NCBI GenBank assembly: GCA_040757475.1
Contig: JBFLWW010000001.1
Span: 55,769-119,768, forward strand
DNA: 64,000 nucleotides
From: Nitrospirota bacterium
Lineage (GTDB): Bacteria > Nitrospirota > Thermodesulfovibrionia > Thermodesulfovibrionales > SM23-35
Direction of reading: 5' to 3'
A program made the position numbers and the translations under genes. The notes beneath the pieces were generated by a model. It was given only the letters and a program-made list of their open reading frames with translations. It had not been told where the DNA came from and ran no database searches. Positions 2,982 through 62,997 of this stretch are shown in pieces; within the stretch, counting starts at the first letter, position 1; the number at the start of each line of letters is the position of its first letter.

Positions 2982-3531
2982 AAGGCTATCTGGCATAATA
3001 CTGCTGATATTACTTTTTCTGTGCGGTGCTGCAGGCGGATATTTTTATTTCTCGAAGGTCTTTTCTAAGGACAGGCCCCCTACAGAAGAGATAGTTGAGA
3101 CATTAACTAAGACAGAAGACCTGTTTTCTCTGAGGATTTATTATCCTGTAGGTGATCGGCTCCAGATGGAAGAAAGGAGGATTCTGAGGAGGACTGCACA
3201 GATGGCGATTGCAGAGGCTATAGTAGAAGAATTCCTTAAGGGGCCTGCAGGTGTAATGGTATCAAATATACCGAAAGATGCAAGGCTTCTCGGTCTATAT
3301 AAAGATACAGAGATGATACTCTATGTTGATCTGTCAGACGAGTTTCGTAGGAATTTTCAGGGCGATGCTGTTACAGAGTTCCTCCTTCTTAAGGGTCTGT
3401 ATGAGAGCCTTATTTCAAATATACAGGACATCAAAGATGTAAAAGTCCTTATAGAGGGGAAGGAGATAGAAACGCTCGGAGGCCATCTTTATCTCTCATA
3501 TCCTTTAAAAGATATGGTTTCACATGAATAA
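2956..3531 (+). CDS. GerMN-domain protein (membrane-anchored)
   Basis: N-terminal TM helix. The pattern L.IYYP....L..E.R......A.A.VEEFLKGP...S.IP is typical of GerMN. The ATG at 2971 is an alternative start. Confidence 0.6.
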   Translation: MESQHMNIKRLSGIILLILLFLCGAAGGYFYFSKVFSKDRPPTEEIVETLTKTEDLFSLRIYYPVGDRLQMEERRILRRTAQMAIAEAIVEEFLKGPAGVMVSNIPKDARLLGLYKDTEMILYVDLSDEFRRNFQGDAVTEFLLLKGLYESLISNIQDIKDVKVLIEGKEIETLGGHLYLSYPLKDMVSHE

Positions 3532-4333
3532 GAAAGACAGGCCAATTGGTGTCTTTGATTCTGGGATAGGTGGGCTCACAGTTTTAAAGGAGATAATAAA
3601 GGAACTGCCTGATGAAGGCACTATTTATCTCGGCGATACTGCGAGGGTTCCATACGGGATAAGGTCGCCGGAGACAGTCATTAGATATTCATTCGAAAAT
3701 ACGAGATTCCTCTCTTCGAGAGATATTAAAATCCTTGTAGTTGCCTGCAATACCGCATCGTCTGTCAGCCTCGATGCCATCAAAGGGAGCATCCCGATAC
3801 CTGTTATTGGAGTTATTGAGCCAGGTGCAAAGGCTGCTGTCAGGGCTACAAGGAACAAGAAGATCGGGGTTATAGGCACAGAGGCAACAATAAAAAGCAG
3901 TTCTTATACAAAGGCGATCAAGACTATTAATGAAAATATAGAGGTATTCGGTCTTCCATGTCCTTTATTTGTGCCGCTTGTAGAGGAAGGGTGGACAGAG
4001 GGGGATGTTGTTACCTTGATTGCCAAAAGGTATCTTGAGGGAATAAAAGATAAAGGTATAGATACCCTTGTACTCGGATGCACACATTATCCTTTACTGA
4101 AAAAGGTTATATCCTCGGTTATAGGTGAAGATGTAAGACTTATAGACTCTGCAGTTGAGGTAGCACAGGAGATAAAGGCAACTCTCGAGATTGCTGGTTT
4201 AAAGAGGGAACAGAAGGATGTGCCCCTAAGAGAGTTTTATGTAACAGATTCGCCTGAGAGGTTCATAAAAGTCGGCAAGAACTTTCTTGGACAGAAGATA
4301 GAGCATATAGAGAAAATAGCACTCAACTATTAG
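3524..4333 (+). CDS. murI: glutamate racemase
   Basis: Motifs IGVFDSGIGGLTV, VVACNTAS and LGCTHYP. Confidence 0.93.
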   Translation: MNKKDRPIGVFDSGIGGLTVLKEIIKELPDEGTIYLGDTARVPYGIRSPETVIRYSFENTRFLSSRDIKILVVACNTASSVSLDAIKGSIPIPVIGVIEPGAKAAVRATRNKKIGVIGTEATIKSSSYTKAIKTINENIEVFGLPCPLFVPLVEEGWTEGDVVTLIAKRYLEGIKDKGIDTLVLGCTHYPLLKKVISSVIGEDVRLIDSAVEVAQEIKATLEIAGLKREQKDVPLREFYVTDSPERFIKVGKNFLGQKIEHIEKIALNY

Positions 4334-4368
4334 CTGAAAGCTGAGAGCTAAATGCTTAAAGCTGAAAA
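4334..4368. repeat. heptamer array (single arm): CTGAAAG CTGAGAG CTAAATG CTTAAAG CTGAAAA
   Basis: Five consecutive 7-nt units read directly in the murI-rph spacer. Confidence 0.8.
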
Positions 4369-10355: not shown

Positions 10356-10414
10356 GCATAGAGCTAAGAGCGAAGAGTGAATAGTCAAAAACTCTATGCT
10401 CTTTGCTCTCTGCT
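10356..10414. repeat. two-arm heptamer element (GCATAGA GCTAAGA GCGAAGA GTGAATA GTCAAAA / ACTCTAT GCTCTTT GCTCTCT GCT)
   Basis: It fills the convergent galT/cooC spacer. The right-arm units complement the left-arm units, so it probably also acts as a bidirectional terminator. Confidence 0.8.
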
Positions 10415-20299: not shown

Positions 20300-20384
20300 G
20301 CAAAATGAAAAATTACAATTCAAAATTCAAAAATACATTTTTCCTTAATTTTGCATTTTTAATTTTTATTTTTGAATTTTTCAT
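20300..20384. repeat. two-arm heptamer element, CAAAA/TTTTG class, overlapping the start of the DUF3108 gene
   Basis: The left arm is GCAAAAT GAAAAAT TACAATT CAAAATT CAAAAAT and the right arm is CCTTAAT TTTGCAT TTTTAAT TTTTATT TTTGAAT TTTTCAT. The 19-mer TTCCTTAATTTTGCATTTT (20341-20359) is identical to 25397-25415. Confidence 0.85.
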
Positions 20385-23327: not shown

Positions 23328-23402
23328 GGGCGATTAGCTCAGTGGGAGAGCGCTGCCTTCACACGGCAGAGGTCGTAGGTTCGAAACCTACATCGCCTAC
23401 CA
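23328..23402 (+). tRNA. tRNA-Val (anticodon CAC)
   Basis: Cloverleaf read by eye. Acceptor GGGCGAT/ATCGCCT, D-arm GCTC-AGTGGGA-GAGC, anticodon arm CTGCC-TTCACAC-GGCAG, T-arm GTAGG-TTCGAAA-CCTAC, encoded CCA. Confidence 0.9.
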
Positions 23403-25356: not shown

Positions 25357-25437
25357 AAAATCAAAAATCAAATATTAAAAAATCAAAATTATGGAGTTCC
25401 TTAATTTTGCATTTTGATTTTTGCATTTTACATTTTT
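25357..25437. repeat. two-arm heptamer element, CAAAA/TTTTG class, inside the por operon (porA-porB spacer)
   Basis: The left arm is AAAATCAAAAATCAAATATTAAAAAATCAAAATT and the right arm is TTCCTTAATTTTGCATTTTGATTTTTGCATTTTACATTTTT. Confidence 0.85.
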
Positions 25438-28961: not shown

Positions 28962-29405
28962 ATGAAAAAAGAAAGAATGAAAAGGGAATTTACTGAAGAA
29001 GAAAAAAAGGACATGCCTCTTTATCCCATAGGGATTGTAGCAGAACTTATAGGTACAACTGACCAGACGCTTCGCCTTTATGAAAAGCACGGCCTGCTAA
29101 AACCAGCCCGGAGGAATAAAAACAGATTTTATTCTGAGAATGACATAAAGTGGCTTAGATGTCTGAGAGACCTGATACATAACAGAAAGATCAGCATTGA
29201 AGGCATAAAGAAGCTGCTTGATTATGCGCCATGTTGGGAGATAACAGAGTGTTCAGAGGAGAGAAGAAATAAGTGCTCTGCATATATAGACAGAACAAAG
29301 CCATGCTGGGAACTGAACAGAATAATATGCCAGAGGGAATCAGGCAGGATATGTGAGGACTGCGTTGTATTCTTATCCAAGATTATCAAGAAAAGTGTTA
29401 ATTAA
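28962..29405 (+). CDS. MerR-family (HspR-like) transcriptional regulator with C-terminal Cys-rich domain containing two PCWE motifs
   Basis: The HTH is YPIGIVAELIGTTDQTLRLYEKHGLLKP.R....R.YS..D. The C-terminus is APCWEITECSEERRNKCSAYIDRTKPCWELNRIICQRESGRICEDCVVF, with 7 Cys. Confidence 0.8.
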   Translation: MKKERMKREFTEEEKKDMPLYPIGIVAELIGTTDQTLRLYEKHGLLKPARRNKNRFYSENDIKWLRCLRDLIHNRKISIEGIKKLLDYAPCWEITECSEERRNKCSAYIDRTKPCWELNRIICQRESGRICEDCVVFLSKIIKKSVN

Positions 29406-30795
29406 ACGCTGCTATCACAGCATTGAGTTTCCCTTCGACAAACTCTTTTATTTCCCTGAGAGATTCTTCGTCTTTTGCCTCGAACCTCATCACAAGCGCA
29501 GGCTGGGTGTTTGAAGCCCTAATAAGTGCCCATCCTTTATCAAACTTAATCCTTATACCGTCAATATCATTAAGAGGGTAGTCCCTGAATGCCTCTTTTG
29601 TCTTATCAACTATCTTGAACTTTATCTCATCTGGGCATTCAAATCTTATCTCAGGTGTTGACACACTCTTGGGGATATCTGCGAGGAGCCGCTTTATGGA
29701 ATAGGGTCTTCCGTTCTTTGCAAGTATCTCAAGAAGCCTCAAGCTCGCATATATAGCGTCATCGTATCCGAAATACCTGTCAGAGAAGAATATATGGCCG
29801 CTCATCTCTCCACCAAGCAGTGCGCCTGCCTCTTTCATCTTACTTTTTATGAGTGAGTGTCCTGCCTTCCACATAATGGGATTCCCTCCGAGCCTTCGTA
29901 TCTCATCATACATTACCTGAGAACATTTCACCTCACCCACAAATGTTGGGGGTTTTGAGCTTTGAGCTTTGAGCTTTAGGCTTTGAGTTTCAATGATGTC
30001 CCTTGCAAATATAATCATCAGCCTGTCTCCCCATACCACATCACCATCCCTATCAACAACACCAATCCTGTCAGCATCTCCATCATAGCCGATTCCGAGG
30101 TCTGCACCATGAGCTGATACATTTGCAATAAGGTCTTTTATATTATCCATTACTGTAGGGTCAGGATGGTGGTTTGGAAAATTTCCATCGGGTTCGCAAT
30201 AAAGCTCTATCACCTCGCAGCCTAAGTCCTTCATTAGTTGCGGTGCCAGAAGGCCGGCTGTGCCATTACCCGCGTCAATTACAACCTTTATCCTGTCAAA
30301 TTGAGAGAAATTTCTCTTAAGGTGTCCTATATATTTTGGGATTATCTCATATACTTCGGTTGTCCCTCTCCCCTGAGTAAAATCACCCTGTTCCACTATC
30401 CTCTTTACATCCTGTATCTTTTCTCCATAAAGGGTTTCTTTGCCTACACTGAGTTTCATGCCATTGAATTCAGGAGGGTTGTGGCTTCCTGTAATCATCA
30501 CTCCACCGTCAACAGGGAGATGGAATAGAGAGAAGTACTGAAGAGGAGTTGGGCATATGCCAATATCTACAACATCAATTCCGCTAACAAGGAGCCCATG
30601 CGACAATGCTTCAAGTATAGCAGGAGAACTCAGTCGCACATCCCTTCCAATGCTCACCTTTATTTTTTCTTTTTTGAGGGCGGCCCTCAGATAAACTGCA
30701 AATGCCCTGCCTATCTTTTCTATAACCTCTTCTGTGAGGTCCCTTCCCCATATCCCTCTTATATCATACTGTCTGAAGATTGCAGGATTTAACAC
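29398..30795 (-). CDS. phosphomannomutase/phosphoglucomutase (alpha-D-phosphohexomutase)
   Basis: Active-site loop TGSHNPPEFNGMK, metal loop GYDGDADR and GGEMSGH. Confidence 0.9.
   Translation of the reverse strand: MLNPAIFRQYDIRGIWGRDLTEEVIEKIGRAFAVYLRAALKKEKIKVSIGRDVRLSSPAILEALSHGLLVSGIDVVDIGICPTPLQYFSLFHLPVDGGVMITGSHNPPEFNGMKLSVGKETLYGEKIQDVKRIVEQGDFTQGRGTTEVYEIIPKYIGHLKRNFSQFDRIKVVIDAGNGTAGLLAPQLMKDLGCEVIELYCEPDGNFPNHHPDPTVMDNIKDLIANVSAHGADLGIGYDGDADRIGVVDRDGDVVWGDRLMIIFARDIIETQSLKLKAQSSKPPTFVGEVKCSQVMYDEIRRLGGNPIMWKAGHSLIKSKMKEAGALLGGEMSGHIFFSDRYFGYDDAIYASLRLLEILAKNGRPYSIKRLLADIPKSVSTPEIRFECPDEIKFKIVDKTKEAFRDYPLNDIDGIRIKFDKGWALIRASNTQPALVMRFEAKDEESLREIKEFVEGKLNAVIAAFN
29953..29992. repeat. 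heptamer array inside the phosphomannomutase ORF
   Basis: The minus strand reads ACTCAAA GCCTAAA GCTCAAA GCTCAAA GCTCAAA, translated as ..ETQSLKLKAQSSKPP... Confidence 0.8.
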
Positions 30796-39577: not shown

Positions 39578-39649
39578 AGTTATGAGTGATGAGTTACGAG
39601 TGAGAAGTTAAAAACTATGGACCTTTAAACTTCTCGTTTAACTCGTTAC
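39578..39649. repeat. two-arm heptamer element (TTATGAG TGATGAG TTACGAG TGAGAAG TTAAAA / TTTAAACTTCTCGTTTAACTCGTTAC)
   Basis: Read directly in the qmoC-hppA spacer. Confidence 0.8.
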
Positions 39650-49203: not shown

Positions 49204-49240
49204 AAAATTTTAAATTTTAAATTTTAAATTTTAAATTTTT
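49204..49240. repeat. (TAAATTT)x5 perfect-to-near-perfect tandem heptamer upstream of aprB
   Basis: AAAATTT TAAATTT TAAATTT TAAATTT TAAATTT, read directly. Confidence 0.9.
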
Positions 49241-54155: not shown

Positions 54156-54941
54156 ATGCCCAGGAAGAGGCTTCTGCTTTTTCTCTTTATAATCACATCC
54201 CTCAGCTTGATGACTTATCAGAGTAACAGAGAACATCTCCTGCCCCTTAAATTCCTGAGTAACACACTTAACAGGTTTCATGCTATAGCGAATTCTGTAA
54301 AGGACTCGGTTACCTCTCCTTTTAAAAGGATGCTCATCAGGGAAGAGGAAAATATAAGATTAAAAGCAGAACTTAACAAATTATTCAAAGAACAGCAGAG
54401 GTACCAGGAGGCTCTGCTCGAAAATAAGAGACTCAGGGAGATCCTCTCGCTTAAGGAAAAAGGGCAAGGGTATGTTACTGCTGCACGTGTTATAGCAAGA
54501 GGTGCAGACCAGTGGTCAAATACATTTATCCTCGATAAGGGGCTCTCAGACGGGGTTGTAAAAGACATGACGGCTATTACACACAGAGGGCTGGTAGGGA
54601 AGATCTCATGGGTATCTGATTCTTACTCAACCCTGCTTCTCCTCACTGACATAAACTTCTCTGCAGCGGTAAGGCTTCAGGAAAGCAGAAAAGAGGGTAT
54701 AATCTCAGGTACAGGCTTCAGGAAATGCCAACTGAAATACATCCCCTCTGAAGAAGAGGTAAAGACAGGCGATATTGTAGTAACATCAGGACTTGATTCA
54801 CTATTCCCTCGGGGCATCCCTGTAGGCTATGTGTCAAAGGTGGACAAAAAGGGCACAGGGCTTTTCCAGGACATCGAAGTGCTTCCATTTGAGGATAATA
54901 CAAAGATTGAGGAGGTAGCAATAATAAAAAATCAAAGATAA
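54156..54941 (+). CDS. mreC: rod shape-determining protein MreC
   Basis: N-terminal TM helix, the coiled coil ENIRLKAELNKL, and GLVGKI plus IVVTSGLDSLFPRGIPVG. Confidence 0.88.
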   Translation: MPRKRLLLFLFIITSLSLMTYQSNREHLLPLKFLSNTLNRFHAIANSVKDSVTSPFKRMLIREEENIRLKAELNKLFKEQQRYQEALLENKRLREILSLKEKGQGYVTAARVIARGADQWSNTFILDKGLSDGVVKDMTAITHRGLVGKISWVSDSYSTLLLLTDINFSAAVRLQESRKEGIISGTGFRKCQLKYIPSEEEVKTGDIVVTSGLDSLFPRGIPVGYVSKVDKKGTGLFQDIEVLPFEDNTKIEEVAIIKNQR

Positions 54942-55033
54942 AAATTTAAATGCAAAATTGAGGAAATTTATTTTTGAAATTTTGAATTGTAATTTTGTAT
55001 TTTGCTTTTTGAATTTTGATTTTAGTGATTTTA
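54925..55033. repeat. two-arm heptamer element, CAAAA/TTTTG class (mreC-mreD junction)
   Basis: The left arm is AAAAAATCAAAGATAAAAATTTAAATGCAAAATTG and the right arm is ATTTATTTTTGAAATTTTGAATTGTAATTTTGTATTTTGCTTTTTGAATTTTGATTTTAGTGATTTT. Confidence 0.8.
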
Positions 55034-55041
55034 GAGGCATC

Positions 55042-55497
55042 ATGATAGCATACATACGATGGACATCCATAATTCTTTTAACCTTCCTCATACAGGGAAA
55101 GGTATCATTGTTCGATATCCCACCGAACTTCACATCTGTTTTAGCATACTATGCAGGCATAAGGAATGGAGAGACCAAAGGGATGTTTTTGGGCTCACTG
55201 ATTGGAATAATTGAAGATAGCCTCTCAGCTACATTCCTTGGCCCCAGTCTTCTGAGTAAGGGCCTCGTGGGTTATTTTTCTTCCTTCATGTCTGGTAGTT
55301 TCTTCAGATGGACCCCTCTTTTAGGCATCATTGGAATATCAATCCTAACATTAGTAGACAGCATCGTTGTTTTAATCTCAAGGGGTATCTTTGATAGAAT
55401 GCCAGTGAGTATCGGGGCAGCAGTTTTTATAGTCACAATACAGTCAATGATAAACGCCCCTTTAGGGATATTTCTGAGGCCGAAGAATGTACAATAA
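55042..55497 (+). CDS. mreD: rod shape-determining protein MreD
   Basis: A polytopic 151-aa protein in the canonical mreBCD position. I place the start at ATG 55042, because the track start 54958 translates the repeat element. Confidence 0.75.
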   Translation: MIAYIRWTSIILLTFLIQGKVSLFDIPPNFTSVLAYYAGIRNGETKGMFLGSLIGIIEDSLSATFLGPSLLSKGLVGYFSSFMSGSFFRWTPLLGIIGISILTLVDSIVVLISRGIFDRMPVSIGAAVFIVTIQSMINAPLGIFLRPKNVQ

Positions 55498-55572: not shown

Positions 55573-57426
55573 TTGAAAAGTGAATCTGAAAAGATATTGA
55601 TAATAAGCTACATAGTGATTGCGGTCTTTCTGCTGCTCATAATGAGGTTGTGGCAGCTTCAGATACTGCAGGGCAGCAAATACAGAAATATGTCTGAAGC
55701 TAACAGGCTAAGGATAATGACGATACCGGCACCCCGGGGAATAATATTTGACAGAAACGGTACCCCGCTTGTAAAAAACTCCTCTTATTACTGTGCCTCG
55801 ATAATCCCTGATGAATTTGATAGGGTTAAGGTCGAAATGCTTGCAAAAGTCCTTAACATGCCGGTTAAGGGGATATTCGAAAAAATAAACAAGAAGGAAC
55901 TAAGTCCTTTTATACCTATAAGACTAAAACAAGGGCTGTCTTTCAATGAGGTCGTATATATTGAATCGAGGCGATCAGACTTCCGGGGTCTTATCATCGA
56001 GACTGAGGTAAGCAGGGAATATATTTATGGTGATGTTGGTTCACACCTCATAGGTTATCTTGGAAAACTTAATCCCTCCCAATCAAAAGACCCTGCATTC
56101 AGGGATGTACCACCAGAGGCATTCATAGGGCAGTGGGGTGTTGAGATGCTATTCGATAAATCACTAAGGGGTATACCAGGCAAGAGGGTTATTGAGGTTG
56201 ATGCACTCGGCAGGGAGATAAAACTGTTACAGGAAAAATCTCCAATAAAAGGAGAAGACCTCATGCTGAGCATAGACATTAATCTCCAGAAAGAGGCTGA
56301 GAAAGCGTTTGGAGAAAGGGCAGGTGCACTTGTTGCAATTAAGCCCAACACCGGCGAGATACTGGGATTGATAAGCAGGCCTTCTTTTGACCCCGACCTC
56401 TTCGCAAGAGGTATAAGTCATGATGAATGGATAGCCCTTACCCAGGATAAAAAGAAGCCCATGCTTAACAGGGCACTACAGAGTCAGTATCCTCCTGGCT
56501 CAACATTCAAGATTGTTACTGCAATAGCAGGACTTGAGGAAGGAGTTATTACCCCTGAGACAAAGGTAGAGTGCAGGGGTGGAATTAACTATGGCAGGTG
56601 GCGTTTTGGCTGCTGGCGTAAAAAGGGGCACGGCGTAGTTTCCCTGCATAGGGCGCTGGTAGAATCATGTGATGTATATTTCTACGAGGTGGGTAAACGT
56701 CTCGGCATAGATAAAATTTATAATTATGCCACAAGTCTTGGCCTCGGAAAAGAAACAGGCATTGAACTTGGAAAAGAAAAGCAGGGATTGATGCCAAACA
56801 CAAAATGGAAGCAGGAAAACAAAAGACTTCCATGGTTCTTAGGTGAAACCTTTAATACAGCAATAGGACAGGGATATGTTTCTGCAACACCTATACAGAT
56901 GGCAGTTATGACAGGTGCAATAGCAAATGGTGGGAATCTATACAGGCCAACACTGATTAAGGACCTCCGACCAGTACTTTCAGGAAAGGCGAAGATAAGA
57001 CCCGAGACTCTTGATATCATTAAAAGCGCACTTTCCGGTGTTGTGAATGAGCCCGGTGGGACTGGATGGGCTGCAAAATCACCATTAATAAGCATCGGAG
57101 GTAAGACAGGGACCGCACAGGTTGTGAGGATGAAGATGGGCTTTAAGTATTCCCCAGAGAGATTCAGGGACCATGCATGGTTTGTTGCATTTGCCCCGGT
57201 AGAAAAACCAGAGGTAGCACTTGCAGTATTTGTCGAACATGGCGGACATGGCGGAGGGGCTGCAGCACCAATTGCAAAGAGGGCGATAGAAGGATATATG
57301 AACAGTTCAAAGTTCAAAGTTCAAAGTTTGACTCTGAATCAAGTTCAGGCCAAAATTCAAAATTCAAAACTCAAAACTCGAAACTCGAAATTCAAAAATG
57401 ATACACATAGATCGCAGATTAATTAA
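55573..57426 (+). CDS. mrdA: penicillin-binding protein 2 (elongasome transpeptidase)
   Basis: TTG start and TM helix. The PBP dimer domain is followed by STFK, SCD.. and KTGTAQ. The C-terminal ~40 aa are translated from a heptamer array. Confidence 0.92.
   Translation: MKSESEKILIISYIVIAVFLLLIMRLWQLQILQGSKYRNMSEANRLRIMTIPAPRGIIFDRNGTPLVKNSSYYCASIIPDEFDRVKVEMLAKVLNMPVKGIFEKINKKELSPFIPIRLKQGLSFNEVVYIESRRSDFRGLIIETEVSREYIYGDVGSHLIGYLGKLNPSQSKDPAFRDVPPEAFIGQWGVEMLFDKSLRGIPGKRVIEVDALGREIKLLQEKSPIKGEDLMLSIDINLQKEAEKAFGERAGALVAIKPNTGEILGLISRPSFDPDLFARGISHDEWIALTQDKKKPMLNRALQSQYPPGSTFKIVTAIAGLEEGVITPETKVECRGGINYGRWRFGCWRKKGHGVVSLHRALVESCDVYFYEVGKRLGIDKIYNYATSLGLGKETGIELGKEKQGLMPNTKWKQENKRLPWFLGETFNTAIGQGYVSATPIQMAVMTGAIANGGNLYRPTLIKDLRPVLSGKAKIRPETLDIIKSALSGVVNEPGGTGWAAKSPLISIGGKTGTAQVVRMKMGFKYSPERFRDHAWFVAFAPVEKPEVALAVFVEHGGHGGGAAAPIAKRAIEGYMNSSKFKVQSLTLNQVQAKIQNSKLKTRNSKFKNDTHRSQIN
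57305..57397. repeat. heptamer arrays (GTTCAAA x3; AAATTCA AAATTCA AAACTCA AAACTCG AAACTCG AAATTCA) at the mrdA/rodA junction
   Basis: Read directly. The arrays lie inside the 3' end of the mrdA ORF and end at the rodA ATG (57398). Confidence 0.85.
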
Positions 57427-58586: not shown

Positions 58587-58663
58587 GGCGGTGTAGCTCA
58601 GTCGGTCAGAGCATGCGGCTCATATCCGCAGTGTCCGGGGTTCAAATCCCTGCACCGCCACCA
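58587..58663 (+). tRNA. tRNA with CAT anticodon (elongator Met, or Ile2 if lysidinylated)
   Basis: Acceptor GGCGGTG/CACCGCC, anticodon arm TGCGG-CTCATAT-CCGCA, T-arm CGGGG-TTCAAAT-CCCTG, encoded CCA. Positions 1:72 are paired and there is no GGG/CCC in the anticodon stem, so it is not an initiator. Confidence 0.88.
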
Positions 58664-59427: not shown

Positions 59428-60996
59428 ATGGATACGAGAACCCTTATTGCCATAGCACTCGCATTTGCTATCCTCTTTCTCTACCAGTACTTCTTTATTA
59501 AACCTGAACCACAGCAGGTTCAAAAACAAGCAAAGGTAGAAAAGAAAGAAGAACCTAAACCTGTAAAGCCTGTAGAGGTCACGATAAATAAAGGTATACC
59601 CTCTGAAGAAAAAGAGCTAAGGGTCGAGACTGAATTATATTCAGCAGTCTTTACAACAAAAGGTGGGACATTAAAATACTATGAGCTTAAACCCTATAAG
59701 GATAAAGAGGGCAAAAATATTGTACTCCTTAAAAAGTCAGGCATCCATCCTCCTCTCAGTATAGGGTCGAAAGACGACTTTGATCTGGCTAATGCAAATT
59801 TTAATGTTATCGGAAAGGATATCAAACTCAATAGAGATAAAAAGTCAGATTCATTCATATTCGAATATACAGATTCAGGATTCTCTGTTAGAAGGACATA
59901 TACGTTTCATAATGATGATTACAGGGTTGATATTAAAGATGAGGTTTCAGGACTGCCTGATTACTGGATAACCCTCGGGACTGATTTTGGCATCCATAAT
60001 GATAAAGATAAATCATCGCATATAGGTCCTGTTCTTCTCAAGGAGAGTGAGAGGGTCGAGTTTAATGCAAAGAAACTGAATGAAACGAGGAGCTATAAAG
60101 AGGGCCTGAAGTGGATAGCCCAAGAAGATAAGTATTTCTTTGCCTCACTTGTCCCACTTAACAATATGGAAGAGGCAAAGGCATGGAGGGAGAAGGACTC
60201 TCTTGTCATCGCCTTAAGAGGCAAACCTACTACAAACAGCCTTATTCTGTATGCCGGACCAAAAGAACATGACAGGCTTAGTAAACTCAATGTCGGCCTT
60301 GAGCATATCATTGACTTTGGCTTTTTTTCTATCATAGCAAGGCCACTTTTCTGGCTTCTGAAATTTTTTTATAAGTTCATTGGCAACTATGGATGGGCGA
60401 TAGTCCTTCTTACTATAATTACCAGGATACCTTTTATCCCGCTCGTTAACAAAAGCCAGAAGGCAATGAAGAAGATGCAGGAAATACAGCCCAGGCTGGC
60501 CGAGATAAAAGAAAAATACAAGAAAGACCCACAGAGGATGCAGAGGGAGATGATGGAGCTTTATAAAAAGCATAAGGTGAATCCTATGGGAGGGTGTCTC
60601 CCGATACTCCTTCAGATACCCGTATTCTTTGCACTTTATAAGATATTGTTGATAGCTATAGAATTGAGAGATGCACCATTTATGCTATGGATAAAAGACC
60701 TGTCTGCACCCGACTCTCTTTTTGGACACATCCCTTCATGGTTTCCTTTAATCGGCGACTTTGCTGTAGGTCCATTGCCCATAATCATGGGTATCACCAT
60801 GATAATCCAGCAGAAGATGACACCTACATCCATGGATCCAACACAGGCCAAGATAATGATGCTTATGCCGATTATATTCACATTTCTGTTCCTCAACTTT
60901 GCATCAGGACTTGTCCTTTACTGGCTCATAAACAACATCCTCAGTATAGCCCAGCAGTTCTATGTGAACAGGAAACTCGCAAAGCAGACAGCGTAA
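59428..60996 (+). CDS. yidC: membrane protein insertase YidC
   Basis: 522 aa. An N-terminal TM helix, a periplasmic domain and a conserved C-terminal core (NYGWAI.LLTI..R....PL, GCLP.L.Q.P.FFALY). Confidence 0.93.
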   Translation: MDTRTLIAIALAFAILFLYQYFFIKPEPQQVQKQAKVEKKEEPKPVKPVEVTINKGIPSEEKELRVETELYSAVFTTKGGTLKYYELKPYKDKEGKNIVLLKKSGIHPPLSIGSKDDFDLANANFNVIGKDIKLNRDKKSDSFIFEYTDSGFSVRRTYTFHNDDYRVDIKDEVSGLPDYWITLGTDFGIHNDKDKSSHIGPVLLKESERVEFNAKKLNETRSYKEGLKWIAQEDKYFFASLVPLNNMEEAKAWREKDSLVIALRGKPTTNSLILYAGPKEHDRLSKLNVGLEHIIDFGFFSIIARPLFWLLKFFYKFIGNYGWAIVLLTIITRIPFIPLVNKSQKAMKKMQEIQPRLAEIKEKYKKDPQRMQREMMELYKKHKVNPMGGCLPILLQIPVFFALYKILLIAIELRDAPFMLWIKDLSAPDSLFGHIPSWFPLIGDFAVGPLPIIMGITMIIQQKMTPTSMDPTQAKIMMLMPIIFTFLFLNFASGLVLYWLINNILSIAQQFYVNRKLAKQTA

Positions 60997-60997
60997 T

Positions 60998-61106
60998 CTC
61001 CAATCACCAATAATCAAACACCAATAACCAAATAAGCTCCAATAACCAATTACCAAACTCAAGAAATTGTTTGGTTATTGAAATTTGGTCATTGGTTATT
61101 ACCCAA
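60998..61106. repeat. two-arm heptamer element, CCAATAA/TTGGTTATTG class
   Basis: The left arm is CTCCAATCACCAATAATCAAACACCAATAACCAAATAAGCTCCAATAACCAATTACCAAAC and the right arm is TTTGGTTATTGAAATTTGGTCATTGGTTATTACCCAAT. Confidence 0.85.
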
Positions 61107-61125
61107 TCTGCGTTATACTATAAAT

Positions 61126-62517
61126 ATGTCCACTGACGATACCATAGCTGCGATATCCACTCCTGTTGGTGAGGGGGGAATAGGGATTGTCAGATTGAGT
61201 GGGGAAGATTCTGTAGAGATTGCAGAAAAAATCTTCTACTCTCCAAAAAATAAATTTCTTCGTGATTCAAAATCCTACAGAGTTATCTATGGCTTTATAA
61301 AAGACCCAACAACCGGAGAAGAGGTTGACGAAGTGCTCATTACAGTAATGCGCTCTCCCTACTCTTATACAAAAGAGGATGTCGTTGAGATAAACTGTCA
61401 TGGAGGAATGATTCCACTCAGAAAGACACTCGAGCTTGTCCTGAAAGAAGGTGCAAGGCTTGCAGAGCCAGGGGAGTTTACTAAGAGGGCATTTATAAAT
61501 GGAAGGATAGACCTCAGCCAGGCAGAGGCAGTACTTGATCTCATAAGGTCTAAGACGGATGAGAGCAGAAGGATTGCGATTGAGCAACTTCAGGGCGGTC
61601 TCTCTGAAAAGATAACAGCACTGAGAGACAGGTTGACAGAGCTCTGTGCCCATGTAGAGGCATACATTGACTTCCCTGAGGATGAGATAGAGACAGCATC
61701 AAAACAGGACATGTTAGGGTCAATGAAAGAGATTATCAGAGAACTTCAGGCACTCCTCAAGAGCTATGATGAGGCAAGGTTCTTCAGGGAGGGACTTTCA
61801 ACTGCAATCGTTGGAAGACCAAATGTAGGGAAATCATCCCTCCTCAATGCACTCCTTAAAAAAGATAGGGCAATAGTTACAGAGGTTCCAGGGACAACAA
61901 GGGATGTGATCGAGGAGTATCTGAATATAAATGGGCTTCCACTTAGAATCATGGATACAGCAGGTATAAGAGCTGTACAGGATATTGCTGAGAAGGAGGG
62001 TGTAAGAAGAAGTCTTCAGAGTATCGAGAATGCTGACCTTGTGATTGCCATCTTCGACAGTAGTGAACCTTTTAAAGATGAGGATTTCGAGGTTATGGAG
62101 AAGATAAAGGGTAAGAATGCAATTATTGTCATAAACAAGTGTGACCTCCCATCAGCATTTGATGAAGATACACTCTCATCTTGCATCCTGCATCCTGCAT
62201 CACGTATCTTGCAAATCTCTGCAACCCGAGGCGATGGTCTCGAGGAACTAAAGGACAGGATATTCGATTTATGTCTAAAGGACTGGAGGGAGGAAAGAGA
62301 AGGAGTTGTTATAACAAACCTCAGGCACAAGACCGCCATAGAGAATGCTAAGGCATCACTCGATAGGGCAATGTATGCATTGATAGAGAATCAACCACTC
62401 GAAATCCTTGCCCTCGAGCTCAGGGATTCCCTCGACAGGCTCGGTGAAATCGTTGGAGCTGTCACAACAGAGGATATACTGAACAGGATTTTCAACGATT
62501 TTTGTATCGGGAAATAG
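61126..62517 (+). CDS. mnmE: tRNA modification GTPase MnmE
   Basis: MSTDDTIAAISTP.G.GGIGIVR.SG, G-domain GRPNVGKSSLLN / DTAGIR / NKCD, and C-terminal FCIGK. The track start 61078 lies in the repeat element. Confidence 0.93.
   Translation: MSTDDTIAAISTPVGEGGIGIVRLSGEDSVEIAEKIFYSPKNKFLRDSKSYRVIYGFIKDPTTGEEVDEVLITVMRSPYSYTKEDVVEINCHGGMIPLRKTLELVLKEGARLAEPGEFTKRAFINGRIDLSQAEAVLDLIRSKTDESRRIAIEQLQGGLSEKITALRDRLTELCAHVEAYIDFPEDEIETASKQDMLGSMKEIIRELQALLKSYDEARFFREGLSTAIVGRPNVGKSSLLNALLKKDRAIVTEVPGTTRDVIEEYLNINGLPLRIMDTAGIRAVQDIAEKEGVRRSLQSIENADLVIAIFDSSEPFKDEDFEVMEKIKGKNAIIVINKCDLPSAFDEDTLSSCILHPASRILQISATRGDGLEELKDRIFDLCLKDWREEREGVVITNLRHKTAIENAKASLDRAMYALIENQPLEILALELRDSLDRLGEIVGAVTTEDILNRIFNDFCIGK
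62177..62218. repeat. heptamer array inside mnmE: CATCTTG CATCCTG CATCCTG CATCACG TATCTTG CAAATCT
   Basis: Read directly; it is translated as ..SSCILHPASRILQIS... Confidence 0.75.
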
Positions 62518-62811: not shown

Positions 62812-62896
62812 AAAGTTCAAATGTCAAAGCTCAAATTTCAAATGTCTTTGATATTTTGATTTATTTGGTATTTGAATTTTGGATTTTGAATTTGTT
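62811..62896. repeat. two-arm heptamer element, TCAAA/TTTGA class
   Basis: The left arm is GTTCAAA TGTCAAA GCTCAAA TTTCAAA and the right arm is TCTTTGA TATTTTGA TTTATTTGG TATTTGA ATTTTGG ATTTTGA ATTTG. Confidence 0.85.
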
Positions 62897-62910: not shown

Positions 62911-62997
62911 GCCGGTGTGGTGGAACTGGCAGACGCGCCGGACTCAAAATCCGGTGGGGGAAACCCCGTGTGGGTTCGACTCCCACCACCGGCACCA
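62911..62997 (+). tRNA. tRNA-Leu (anticodon CAA)
   Basis: Acceptor GCCGGTG/CACCGGC, anticodon arm CCGGA-CTCAAAA-TCCGG, long variable arm (GGTGGGGGAAACCCCGTG), T-arm TGGGT..TTCGACTCCCA and encoded CCA. Confidence 0.9.

Follow-up and report, generated by a model that had tools for sequence, protein, structure and literature searches.

A heptanucleotide repeat array translated inside a phosphomannomutase/phosphoglucomutase gene of a Nitrospirota bacterium: probable slippage with retention of the reading frame

How can a tandem repeat whose seven-nucleotide unit cannot preserve a reading frame on its own come to lie inside the gene of a conserved metabolic enzyme? Essential coding sequence is expected to be kept free of non-triplet repeats. 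The question is raised by a 64-kb stretch of DNA from an uncultured Nitrospirota bacterium of the Thermodesulfovibrionales (GenBank assembly GCA_040757475.1, contig JBFLWW010000001.1, positions 55,769 to 119,768 of the forward strand), in which a gene for a phosphomannomutase/phosphoglucomutase (PMM/PGM) contains an array of heptamers. This whole stretch is referred to below as the window; all coordinates are given in its numbering, and the coding strand of the PMM/PGM gene is the minus strand. We regard it as probable (roughly 0.75) that the array is a slippage-generated heptanucleotide repeat of the NNTCAAA family, which has grown and is translated inside the PMM/PGM gene, with its reading frame kept by purifying selection. 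It is equally probable in our view that the array represents a tolerated by-product of a genome-wide mutational process rather than a dedicated regulatory device or a demonstrated switch.

The original prediction, made from the sequence alone, had placed the array at 29953-29992 and translated it as ETQSLKLKAQSSKPPTFVGEVKCS; the translation stands and the boundaries were right to within a few bases. On the coding strand the region (29940-29995, minus) reads GAA ACTCAAA GCCTAAA GCTCAAA GCTCAAA GCTCAAA ACCCCCA ACA TTT GTG GGT GAG GTG AAA TGT, and the array is in frame within an open reading frame (ORF) of 465 aa, with the translation E-TQSLKLK-AQSSKPP-T-FVGEVKCS. The elements of the array are as follows.

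29954-29988, minus strand: heptamer array ACTCAAA GCCTAAA GCTCAAA GCTCAAA GCTCAAA, with 5 recognisable units (from the sequence, Tandem Repeats Finder and lag analysis)
29954-29974, minus strand: perfect core (GCTCAAA)x3, 21 nt, encoding one heptad AQSSKLK, the part most prone to slippage (longest perfect lag-7 span 24 nt)
29947-29953, minus strand: ACCCCCA following the array (orthologues have ACCCCTG, ACCCCCA or ACCTCCG at the equal position), which may be either a degenerate sixth unit or a leftover of ancestral N-P-G codons
29944-29988, minus strand: 45 nt between the codons of Glu269 and Phe285, encoding the loop TQSLKLKAQSSKPPT (the loop of AlgC is 9 residues shorter)

The periodicity held up on careful inspection. 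Tandem Repeats Finder reports 29954-29987 with period 7, 4.9 copies, 85% matches and a score of 54, and a scan along the gene finds 24 of 28 matches at lag 7 (nt 812), whereas all other lags from 3 to 12 reach at most 16 of 28. When up to 2 mismatches are allowed, the window contains 8 occurrences of GCTCAAAGCTCAAA, where 0.9 would be expected; none of the 100 shuffles reaches 8, and the two-unit pattern is enriched eight-fold. The possibility that we are dealing with chance periodicity or an artefact of assembly is extremely improbable. Metagenome-assembled genomes (MAGs) can contain mis-assembled repeats, and the sequence is A-rich and of low complexity, but the lag, Tandem Repeats Finder and shuffle statistics speak against chance, the PMM array cannot be attributed to mis-assembly because an independently assembled MAG of the same species has an identical array, homologous arrays exist in >13 other assemblies, and the gene is in frame with all its motifs intact.

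The unit NNTCAAA contains no stop codon in any of the three forward frames, while its reverse orientation is closed by TGA. The PMM array sits on the coding strand in the sole orientation open in all frames, and every in-gene unit found is stop-free in the coding orientation. The array was also said to share the architecture of the intergenic arrays. This is correct as regards the NNTCAAA family, whose members include GTTCAAA, TGTCAAA, GCTCAAA and TTTCAAA at 62817-62846 (with an intergenic GCTCAAA at 62829-62835), as well as ACTCAAA and ATTCAAA at 57351-57397 (ACTCAAA at 57365-57378), but not as regards secondary structure, since the PMM array, unlike many of the intergenic ones, lacks an inverted partner and is not predicted to form a structure as RNA (RNA fold, z = -0.4). 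A role of the PMM array in mRNA structure was dropped on the basis of the same fold, and ribosomal -1 frameshifting was dropped on the grounds that the unit lacks the X XXY YYZ form of slippery heptamers. The Rfam scan of the window identified only tmRNA and tRNAs, with none of the arrays covered by an RNA family.

What kind of protein accommodates the array? The prediction of an AlgC/ManB-type enzyme is borne out by Pfam, homology and Foldseek alike. All four Pfam domains, PGM_PMM_I to IV (I, II, III and the C-terminal domain), score above the cut-offs, the match to the PMM/PGM of Pseudomonas aeruginosa has E = 3e-132 at 45% identity, and the AlphaFold model (mean predicted local distance difference test score, pLDDT, 89.7) superimposes on the P. 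aeruginosa structures 1K2Y and 4IL8 with Foldseek template-modelling (TM) scores of 0.89-0.90. All four catalytic motifs are present and invariant in an alignment of 60 sequences. Together, the sequence and the model identify the protein as an AlgC/ManB-type PMM/PGM, with predicted mutase activity on mannose and glucose phosphates.

29398-30795, minus strand: intact PMM/PGM (AlgC/ManB-type phosphohexomutase) gene, 465 aa (Pfam, homology, AlphaFold)
30475-30492, minus strand: TGSHNP loop, residues 102-107, with the putative catalytic phosphoserine Ser104, whose role is deduced from pSer108 of P. aeruginosa (PMC5509744); T102, G103, S104, H105, N106 and P107 are invariant in 60 homologues
30067-30084, minus strand: DGDADR metal-binding loop, residues 238-243 (60-sequence alignment)
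29920-29934, minus strand: EVKCS strand directly after the repeat-encoded loop; V289, K290 and S292 are invariant in 60 homologues
29794-29811, minus strand: GEMSGH sugar-binding loop of domain III, residues 329-334, downstream of the array and expected to be lost on frameshift
29500-29520, minus strand: RASNTQP phosphate-binding loop of domain IV, residues 426-432, expected to be lost on frameshift

In the alignment with the P. aeruginosa enzyme a gap of 9 residues falls exactly at the array. In the AlphaFold model the first helix of domain III reaches residue 275, i.e. it runs through TQSLKL, and is followed by a loop (276-283) and by the next strand (284-288); residues 271-280 have a mean pLDDT of 68, among the lowest in the protein and the lowest in domain III. 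The model of an orthologue with one extra heptad (P0002) has the helix extended to residue 278, followed by a 12-residue loop with pLDDT 72-84. Thus modelled, the array would form a helix extension of about two turns and a flexible surface loop where helix and strand meet at the start of domain III; judging by the topology, this loop should lie at the far end of the strand that bears the conserved VKCS. The suggestion that the enzyme tolerates a repeat-derived surface loop agrees with these models, in which a helix extension and a low-confidence loop are predicted and the catalytic motifs are untouched. A gain or loss of one or two units is predicted to cut the protein at 282-293 aa, within 6-10 codons and before the sugar- and phosphate-binding loops.

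If the array was generated by slippage, its traces should be visible in the orthologues. We split the loop DNA between the Glu269- and Phe285-equivalent codons into sevens, whereupon all long loops fell in one register, starting straight after the same codon:

Window, 45 nt: ACTCAAA GCCTAAA GCTCAAA x3 ACCCCCA
L001 (nearest relative, 88% aa identity), 66 nt: AGTCAAA x4 ACTCAAA x4 ACCCCTG
L202, 45 nt: AGTCAAA x4 AGTTAGA ACCCCCA
L003, 45 nt: ACTCAAA x4 AGTTAGA ACCTCCG
L002, 45 nt: TCTCAAA-type x5
L005 and L095, 45 nt: NNNCAGA x5
L203, 45 nt: AGTCAGA-type x5
L026 (a 'Deltaproteobacteria' MAG), 45 nt: CAGAAGT x4

Counted as AGTCAGA, L203 and L026 have 3-4 units. Identity at lag 7 is 0.63-0.92 in the array loops versus 0.09-0.48 in short or non-array (GIxEKP) loops. 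The array-type loops are 45 nt long in 10 loci of three clades and 66 nt in L001, while five others range from 36 to 75 nt; at least 13 array-bearing orthologues are known, all of them in frame. Between the window and L001, two species whose proteins are 88% identical, the difference is 21 nt (45 versus 66), that is three units or one heptad, a step of the size that an intact reading frame demands. The earlier argument that the total length must be a multiple of 3 is supported both by this step and by the truncation predicted for alleles that gain or lose one or two units. All four units of L202 are distinguished from those of L003 by one and the same G/C substitution, and the two versions adjoin each other as blocks in L001. 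Such uniformity of units within an array, combined with differences between genomes, is indicative of concerted evolution by repeated expansion and contraction. The unit-to-unit identity of the DNA is not due to selection on the peptide, because successive units are read in three codon phases.

These comparisons bear on the idea that the peptide itself is selected, i.e. that a Lys/Ser/Gln-rich heptad protrusion serves contact with a partner or the membrane, solubility or thermostability, with the DNA periodicity merely a trace of how the loop was made. The recurrence of a 15-residue loop (45 nt) in three clades, the retention of a long loop throughout a clade with 100% support and the modelling of the first heptad as a regular extension of the helix could all be taken in its favour, as could the observation that the heptads of NeuO, a polysialate O-acetyltransferase, raise its catalytic efficiency (PMC3046976). 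However, the loop peptides vary (SQKSKVK, TQNSKLK, SQISNLK, QKSEVRS, QKAEHRM) and their composition tracks the DNA unit; in charge they switch from SQKSKVK, rich in Lys, to QKSEVRSQKSE and QKAEHRMQNAES, which are mixed or acidic, and some loops are Pro/Leu-rich. Proteins >90% identical have different loops, the perfect nucleotide identity between units points to recent turnover at the level of DNA, and no part of domain III is modelled with less confidence than the loop. We therefore consider selection for the peptide unlikely.

Where did the array come from? The original prediction held that homologues possess only a short linker at this site. This is true of AlgC and of about 60 homologues (60-68% identity), which have the linker x-x-N-P-G-A-T-I-I-G-E-V-K-C-S, so that only ..NPGA(T/K)II precedes the (D/E)VKCS strand, but it does not apply to the close relatives. 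In the main clade the commonest loop, E-x-Q-K-A-E-G-I-x-E-K-P-I-F (36 nt), is already 6 residues longer than the ancestral linker and contains a 2-unit proto-repeat, e.g. AGGCAAA AGGCAGA. As its sequence is conserved, the GIxEKP-type loop is probably ancestral within this clade. The array loops seem to have arisen from it several times; accordingly, the word 'insertion' would be better replaced by in-place expansion of an already lengthened loop. Proteins with >90% identity may differ in this respect, e.g. P0005 has ACTCAAA x4 and P0122 the GIxEKP-type loop; the loci L003 and L004 exceed 90% identity in PMM yet are unlike in array content.

A neighbour-joining tree calculated after removal of the loop columns (100 bootstraps) has 100% support for each of three groups: the main long-loop Thermodesulfovibrionales clade, a second clade in which the short-loop P0097, P0099 and P0100 are mixed with P0073, P0082, P0066 and P0115 (array or long loops), and the L026-L028 lineage. 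Short-loop lineages lie between these three array-holding clades; therefore, arrays have been gained at this site at least three times, barring exchange of loop segments between lineages.

An alternative to local growth is import of a finished array, with an intergenic array or the PMM gene of another lineage as the donor and illegitimate recombination or gene conversion as the route. Units that match intergenic ones do exist in the same genome (GCTCAAA and ACTCAAA at the positions given above), a whole 113-nt array segment is present in one strain and absent from another (see below), and near-identical loops are found in different clades (P0082, P0003). Yet all arrays are in the same register after the same codon, relatives without an array already carry the 2-unit proto-repeat, and the block structure (4+4 in L001) is typical of local expansion. 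Moreover, a unit read in a given frame always encodes one and the same peptide, and convergence should therefore produce similar loops. On balance, a ready-made origin appears improbable.

Do such arrays change within a species? A sister strain, present in SRR29635773 and SRR32167787, is represented by contigs from GCA_049324155.1 and from two Logan assemblies, which are about 99% identical to the window. In 11.3 kb of the sister MAG (98.8% identity), corresponding to the stretch 52.6-64 kb, 3 of 6 arrays differ: a 113-nt segment between mreC and mreD (54931-55043), comprising a whole array TTTTGAA/TTTTGTA..., is absent from the sister strain; one AGTTCAA unit differs at 57304 (x3 in the window, x2 in three sister-strain contigs); and an 18-nt indel lies within the CCAATAA array at 61021. 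The remaining indel is a 1-nt homopolymer change. In the longer Logan contig (AAATTTT)x5 at 49205 is replaced by a different heptamer-like sequence. In total, the 15.5 kb compared, of which the sister MAG contributes 11.3 kb, contain four indels >1 nt, three of them in the sister MAG part; each lies in or spans a heptamer array, and such arrays are thus the main indel hotspots of this genome. The one-unit change at 57304 shifts the frame of the PBP2 gene, with the result that the window protein has 617 aa, while that of the sister strain has 583 aa and ends with YMNSSKFKV*; the latter is the usual length of PBP2 orthologues, and the 617-aa ORF of the window overlaps the start of rodA. The difference between the PBP2 tails is a natural one-unit frameshift polymorphism.

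By comparison, in 4.9 kb around the PMM gene the two strains are 99.2% identical, with 40 single-nucleotide polymorphisms, a single 1-nt indel and an unchanged PMM array (the gene being 99.6% identical). The array had been proposed to be hypermutable. This applies to other arrays of the genome, which do change between strains, whereas the PMM array is identical in the sister strain, in a comparison that covers two strains and thus has low power. Purifying selection would explain this constancy, given that alleles one or two units longer or shorter are predicted to encode a truncated protein.

The same data are relevant to a rival scenario, in which the array is a phase-variable contingency switch of the NeuO type, perhaps also a tuner of activity. 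One unit more or fewer would shut PMM/PGM down and thereby cut surface polysaccharides dependent on GDP-mannose and glucose-1-phosphate, changes by three units would leave the enzyme on with a new number of heptads, and populations would vary reversibly in the face of phage or stress. The architecture is indeed NeuO-like, with a 7-nt unit in an ORF that is ON only at lengths divisible by three, and a one- or two-unit change truncates the protein within 6-10 codons; sister arrays in the genome change by one unit between strains, PMM/PGM feeds the synthesis of lipopolysaccharide and exopolysaccharide in P. aeruginosa (PMC5509744), and L001 has 8 nearly identical units. Nevertheless, we find a switch unlikely. 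There are only 3 perfect units (21-24 nt) in the window and two blocks of 4 in L001, as compared with 2-93 copies in NeuO and tracts of 8-14 units in Haemophilus influenzae; the PMM array is identical in the sister strain (99.2-99.6%), while 3 of 6 arrays in the other stretch changed; and the array-bearing orthologues, at least 13 in number, are all in frame. Arrays also occur in PBP2, MnmE and three places in another PMM gene, which fits indiscriminate colonisation better. Finally, the neighbourhood is conserved and of a housekeeping kind: the gene order PBP1A-PMM-MerR-atpB-atpE is kept in relatives, and the locus looks like a housekeeping context, not a surface-antigen locus.

The exact look-up of the products of alleles slipped by -2, -1, +1, +2 or +3 units found none on record, which is weak negative evidence, and the 90% protein cluster of the window PMM contains no length variant. 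The scan of metagenome DNA with degenerate flanks and a variable gap, aimed at length variants and frameshifted alleles, returned only L088, L090 and L095 as relevant among the matches listed, and the 101-aa stretch surrounding the loop, used as a protein query, matched nothing but short and distant fragments, with no inventory of loop variants. One cluster of proteins at 90% identity, comprising L090, L007 and L095, does vary in loop length: in L090/L007 a 15-nt non-repeat insert (..SLRP(I/M)G..) interrupts the array (60 versus 45 nt in L095). Two MAGs with an identical PMM protein (L204 and L205) differ by runs of N and a synteny break, not by arrays.

Is the PMM array an isolated case? Tandem Repeats Finder detects about 20 period-7 arrays in the window, most of them intergenic. 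Stringent tandem arrays in the 64 kb number 5-7 for period 7 versus 0-1 for each other period from 4 to 12, so that period 7 is the sole enriched tandem period. The units vary between arrays (NNTCAAA, AAATTTT, CCAATAA, CATCCTG and others); many belong to NNTCAAA and no single unit dominates. A comparison of PMM loci from different genomes points in the same direction, as other period-7 arrays occur in the flanks at 0.124 per kb at the array-bearing loci versus 0.026 per kb at the others (p = 0.002). Two array-containing elements of the window deserve separate mention:

57304-57397, plus strand: arrays (AGTTCAA)x3 and CAAAATT/CAAAACT x6.7 in the C-terminal tail of PBP2 (ORF 55573-57426)
62817-62893, no strand assigned: inverted pair GTTCAAA TGTCAAA GCTCAAA TTTCAAA / TTTGAxx, forming a hairpin between convergent genes (z = -4.1)

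In the PBP2 ORF the arrays supply the codons for the C-terminal stretch of ~40 residues (..SSKFKVQS..AKIQNSKLKTRNSKFK).

The proposed mechanism can now be put together. Slippage by 7 nt would be unusually active, or unusually well tolerated, throughout the genome in this lineage, and a slipped-strand process would expand, contract and homogenise the arrays. Three units make 21 nt, i.e. one heptad of the form x-Q-x-S-K-x-K. In the PMM/PGM gene an allele would persist only if its net length can be divided by 3, and therefore arrays that differ by whole units alone would be expected to differ by three. From the patterns described above we infer both slippage as the mechanism and the in-place origin from a 2-unit proto-repeat.

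Several points weigh against this reading. Lengths of 36, 39, 54, 60 and 75 nt are also seen; therefore, indels other than whole units contribute, and the history is not one of pure unit slippage. In particular, the passage from the 36-nt GIxEKP loop to 45 nt amounts to 9 nt, which does not correspond to whole units. That 45 nt is found in each of three clades might be due to a structurally optimal size, in which case loop length would be under some selection. As an alternative to independent origins, co-occurring lineages may have exchanged loop segments by recombination or transfer. The functional neutrality of the loop is an assumption.

A broader and considerably more speculative proposal is that the heptamers constitute a genome-wide evolvability or contingency system that extends to housekeeping genes in Thermodesulfovibrionales and in the 'Deltaproteobacteria' MAG lineage. 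We think this improbable. If it were true, slippage in PMM/PGM would reversibly switch the supply of polysaccharide precursors, the number of heptads would tune the enzyme and PBP2 would alternate between C-terminal tails; free-living subsurface anaerobes would then use NeuO-like phase variation at core genes of the cell envelope.

If, as we believe, growth by slippage under selection for the frame is the better description, the locus provides a natural example of a genome-wide mutational bias that writes new surface loops, in the form of heptads, into conserved proteins. The arrays would mark permissive insertion sites in the PMM/PGM fold (three in one orthologue), and the lineage should be well suited to studying the dynamics of heptamer repeats inside and outside genes. 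Should the array switch after all, the biology of contingency loci would reach beyond host-adapted pathogens.

Several further observations concern other genes and other arrays. The MnmE ORF (61078-62517) contains CATCTTG CATCCTG CATCCTG CATCACG TATCTTG in frame (SSCILHPASRILQ; 62177-62201, CATCCTG x3.6) between the NKxD (G4) and SAT (G5) GTPase motifs, and this array is unchanged in the sister strain. In the 'Deltaproteobacteria' MAG lineage the PMM gene of L027 carries three in-frame arrays at three different loops, e.g. (CAAGTCA)x6, and that of L026 carries two; neighbouring genes in this lineage are also array-bearing. The coordinates of the arrays are 3096-3154, 3420-3444 and 3833-3864 in L027, 2071-2104 in L028, and 954-982, 2072-2091, 3420-3447 and 3841-3874 in L026.

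Outside genes, intergenic arrays arranged as inverted pairs form long hairpins with a mismatch at every seventh base, at 10360-10414 (z = -5.5), 62817-62893 (z = -4.1), 25357-25436 (z = -3.0) and 20301-20381 (z = -1.6). Two of the inverted pairs are flanked by convergent genes and resemble bidirectional terminators made up of heptamers. Single arrays are found 10-25 nt upstream of start codons at 4332-4367, 39578-39610, 49205-49239 and 60995-61056, a placement similar to that of the TAACTGA repeats of Beggiatoaceae; the array at 49205-49239, a perfect (AAATTTT)x5, precedes an aprB-like gene, and the one at 60995-61056 contains the 18-nt indel. The tmRNA gene and the three tRNA genes are located at 1871-2216, 23328-23399, 58587-58660 and 62911-62994, the tRNA at 62911 directly following the heptamer hairpin 62817-62893. 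The sequence GCAAAAG GCAAAAG GC with a T run at 1790-1805, just upstream of the tmRNA gene, has the appearance of an ordinary terminator hairpin; it is listed as period-7 by Tandem Repeats Finder but probably does not belong to the heptamer family.

How does the array compare with known systems? The literature on intergenic families ranks heptamers first among the long repeat classes for over-representation in many prokaryotes (as relayed by PMC4679880 and PMC4692102), and the families include the cyanobacterial STRR, with GGGGA(T/C)T in Nostoc, and GGGAATC of Xanthomonas (PMC4692102), as well as TAACTGA of Beggiatoaceae (PMC4679880). Such STRR-like families share with the window a lineage-specific excess of 7-nt arrays, which lie mainly between genes, in many cases near start or stop codons, and are occasionally arranged in inverted pairs; they differ in having one dominant unit per genome and in their reported under-representation in coding regions, whereas the units of the window are varied and several of its arrays are in frame in conserved genes. 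Our literature search for heptamer repeats in Thermodesulfovibrio/Nitrospirota found no report among the papers searched; several further in-gene arrays co-occurring in such a lineage are new here.

Intragenic heptamers are exemplified in H. influenzae by hmw1A, with (AATTTTG)14, and by the homologue of HI1369, with (AACAACC)8-13 (PMC2651432). Here, too, heptamer tracts lie in ORFs, and a change in the number of units frameshifts the gene. However, H. influenzae is a host-adapted pathogen, and its tracts, which are long and located in genes for surface proteins or receptors, count as contingency loci. The PMM array is short and comes from an environmental anaerobe that is uncultured; the gene concerned belongs to core metabolism, and the array has been in frame wherever seen. 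As to the enzyme, the P. aeruginosa PMM/PGM (AlgC; 1K35 and 1K2Y in the PDB) matches the window protein in its four-domain fold (TM 0.9, at 45% identity) and in every catalytic loop, but has the short linker ..SRNPGADIIFDVKC, to which the latter adds 9 repeat-encoded residues.

The closest analogue is the poly-psi repeat of NeuO, encoded by the CUS-3 prophage of E. coli K1, which is a translated 7-nt repeat with the unit AAGACTC in 2-93 copies (PMC3046976). In both cases 7-nt units lie in an ORF and are translated, a full-length product is made only in frame and three units specify a heptad; moreover, the NeuO unit read from ACT is ACTCAAG, one base off the ACTCAAA/GCTCAAA of the PMM array, the NeuO heptad RLKTQDS (TQDSRLK) resembles the TQNSKLK/AQSSKLK of PMM loops, and both peptides are flexible or unresolved in structures. 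The NeuO array, however, begins 2 nt after the start codon and encodes an N-terminal extension, with documented phase variation and scaling of activity (PMC3046976). The PMM array, in contrast, is internal, placed between secondary-structure elements of the catalytic domain of a housekeeping enzyme, and comprises 5 units, 3 of them perfect, that are invariant in two strains. What is new here is an array inside the catalytic domain of a core enzyme, found at one site in three clades and differing by a three-unit step between orthologues.

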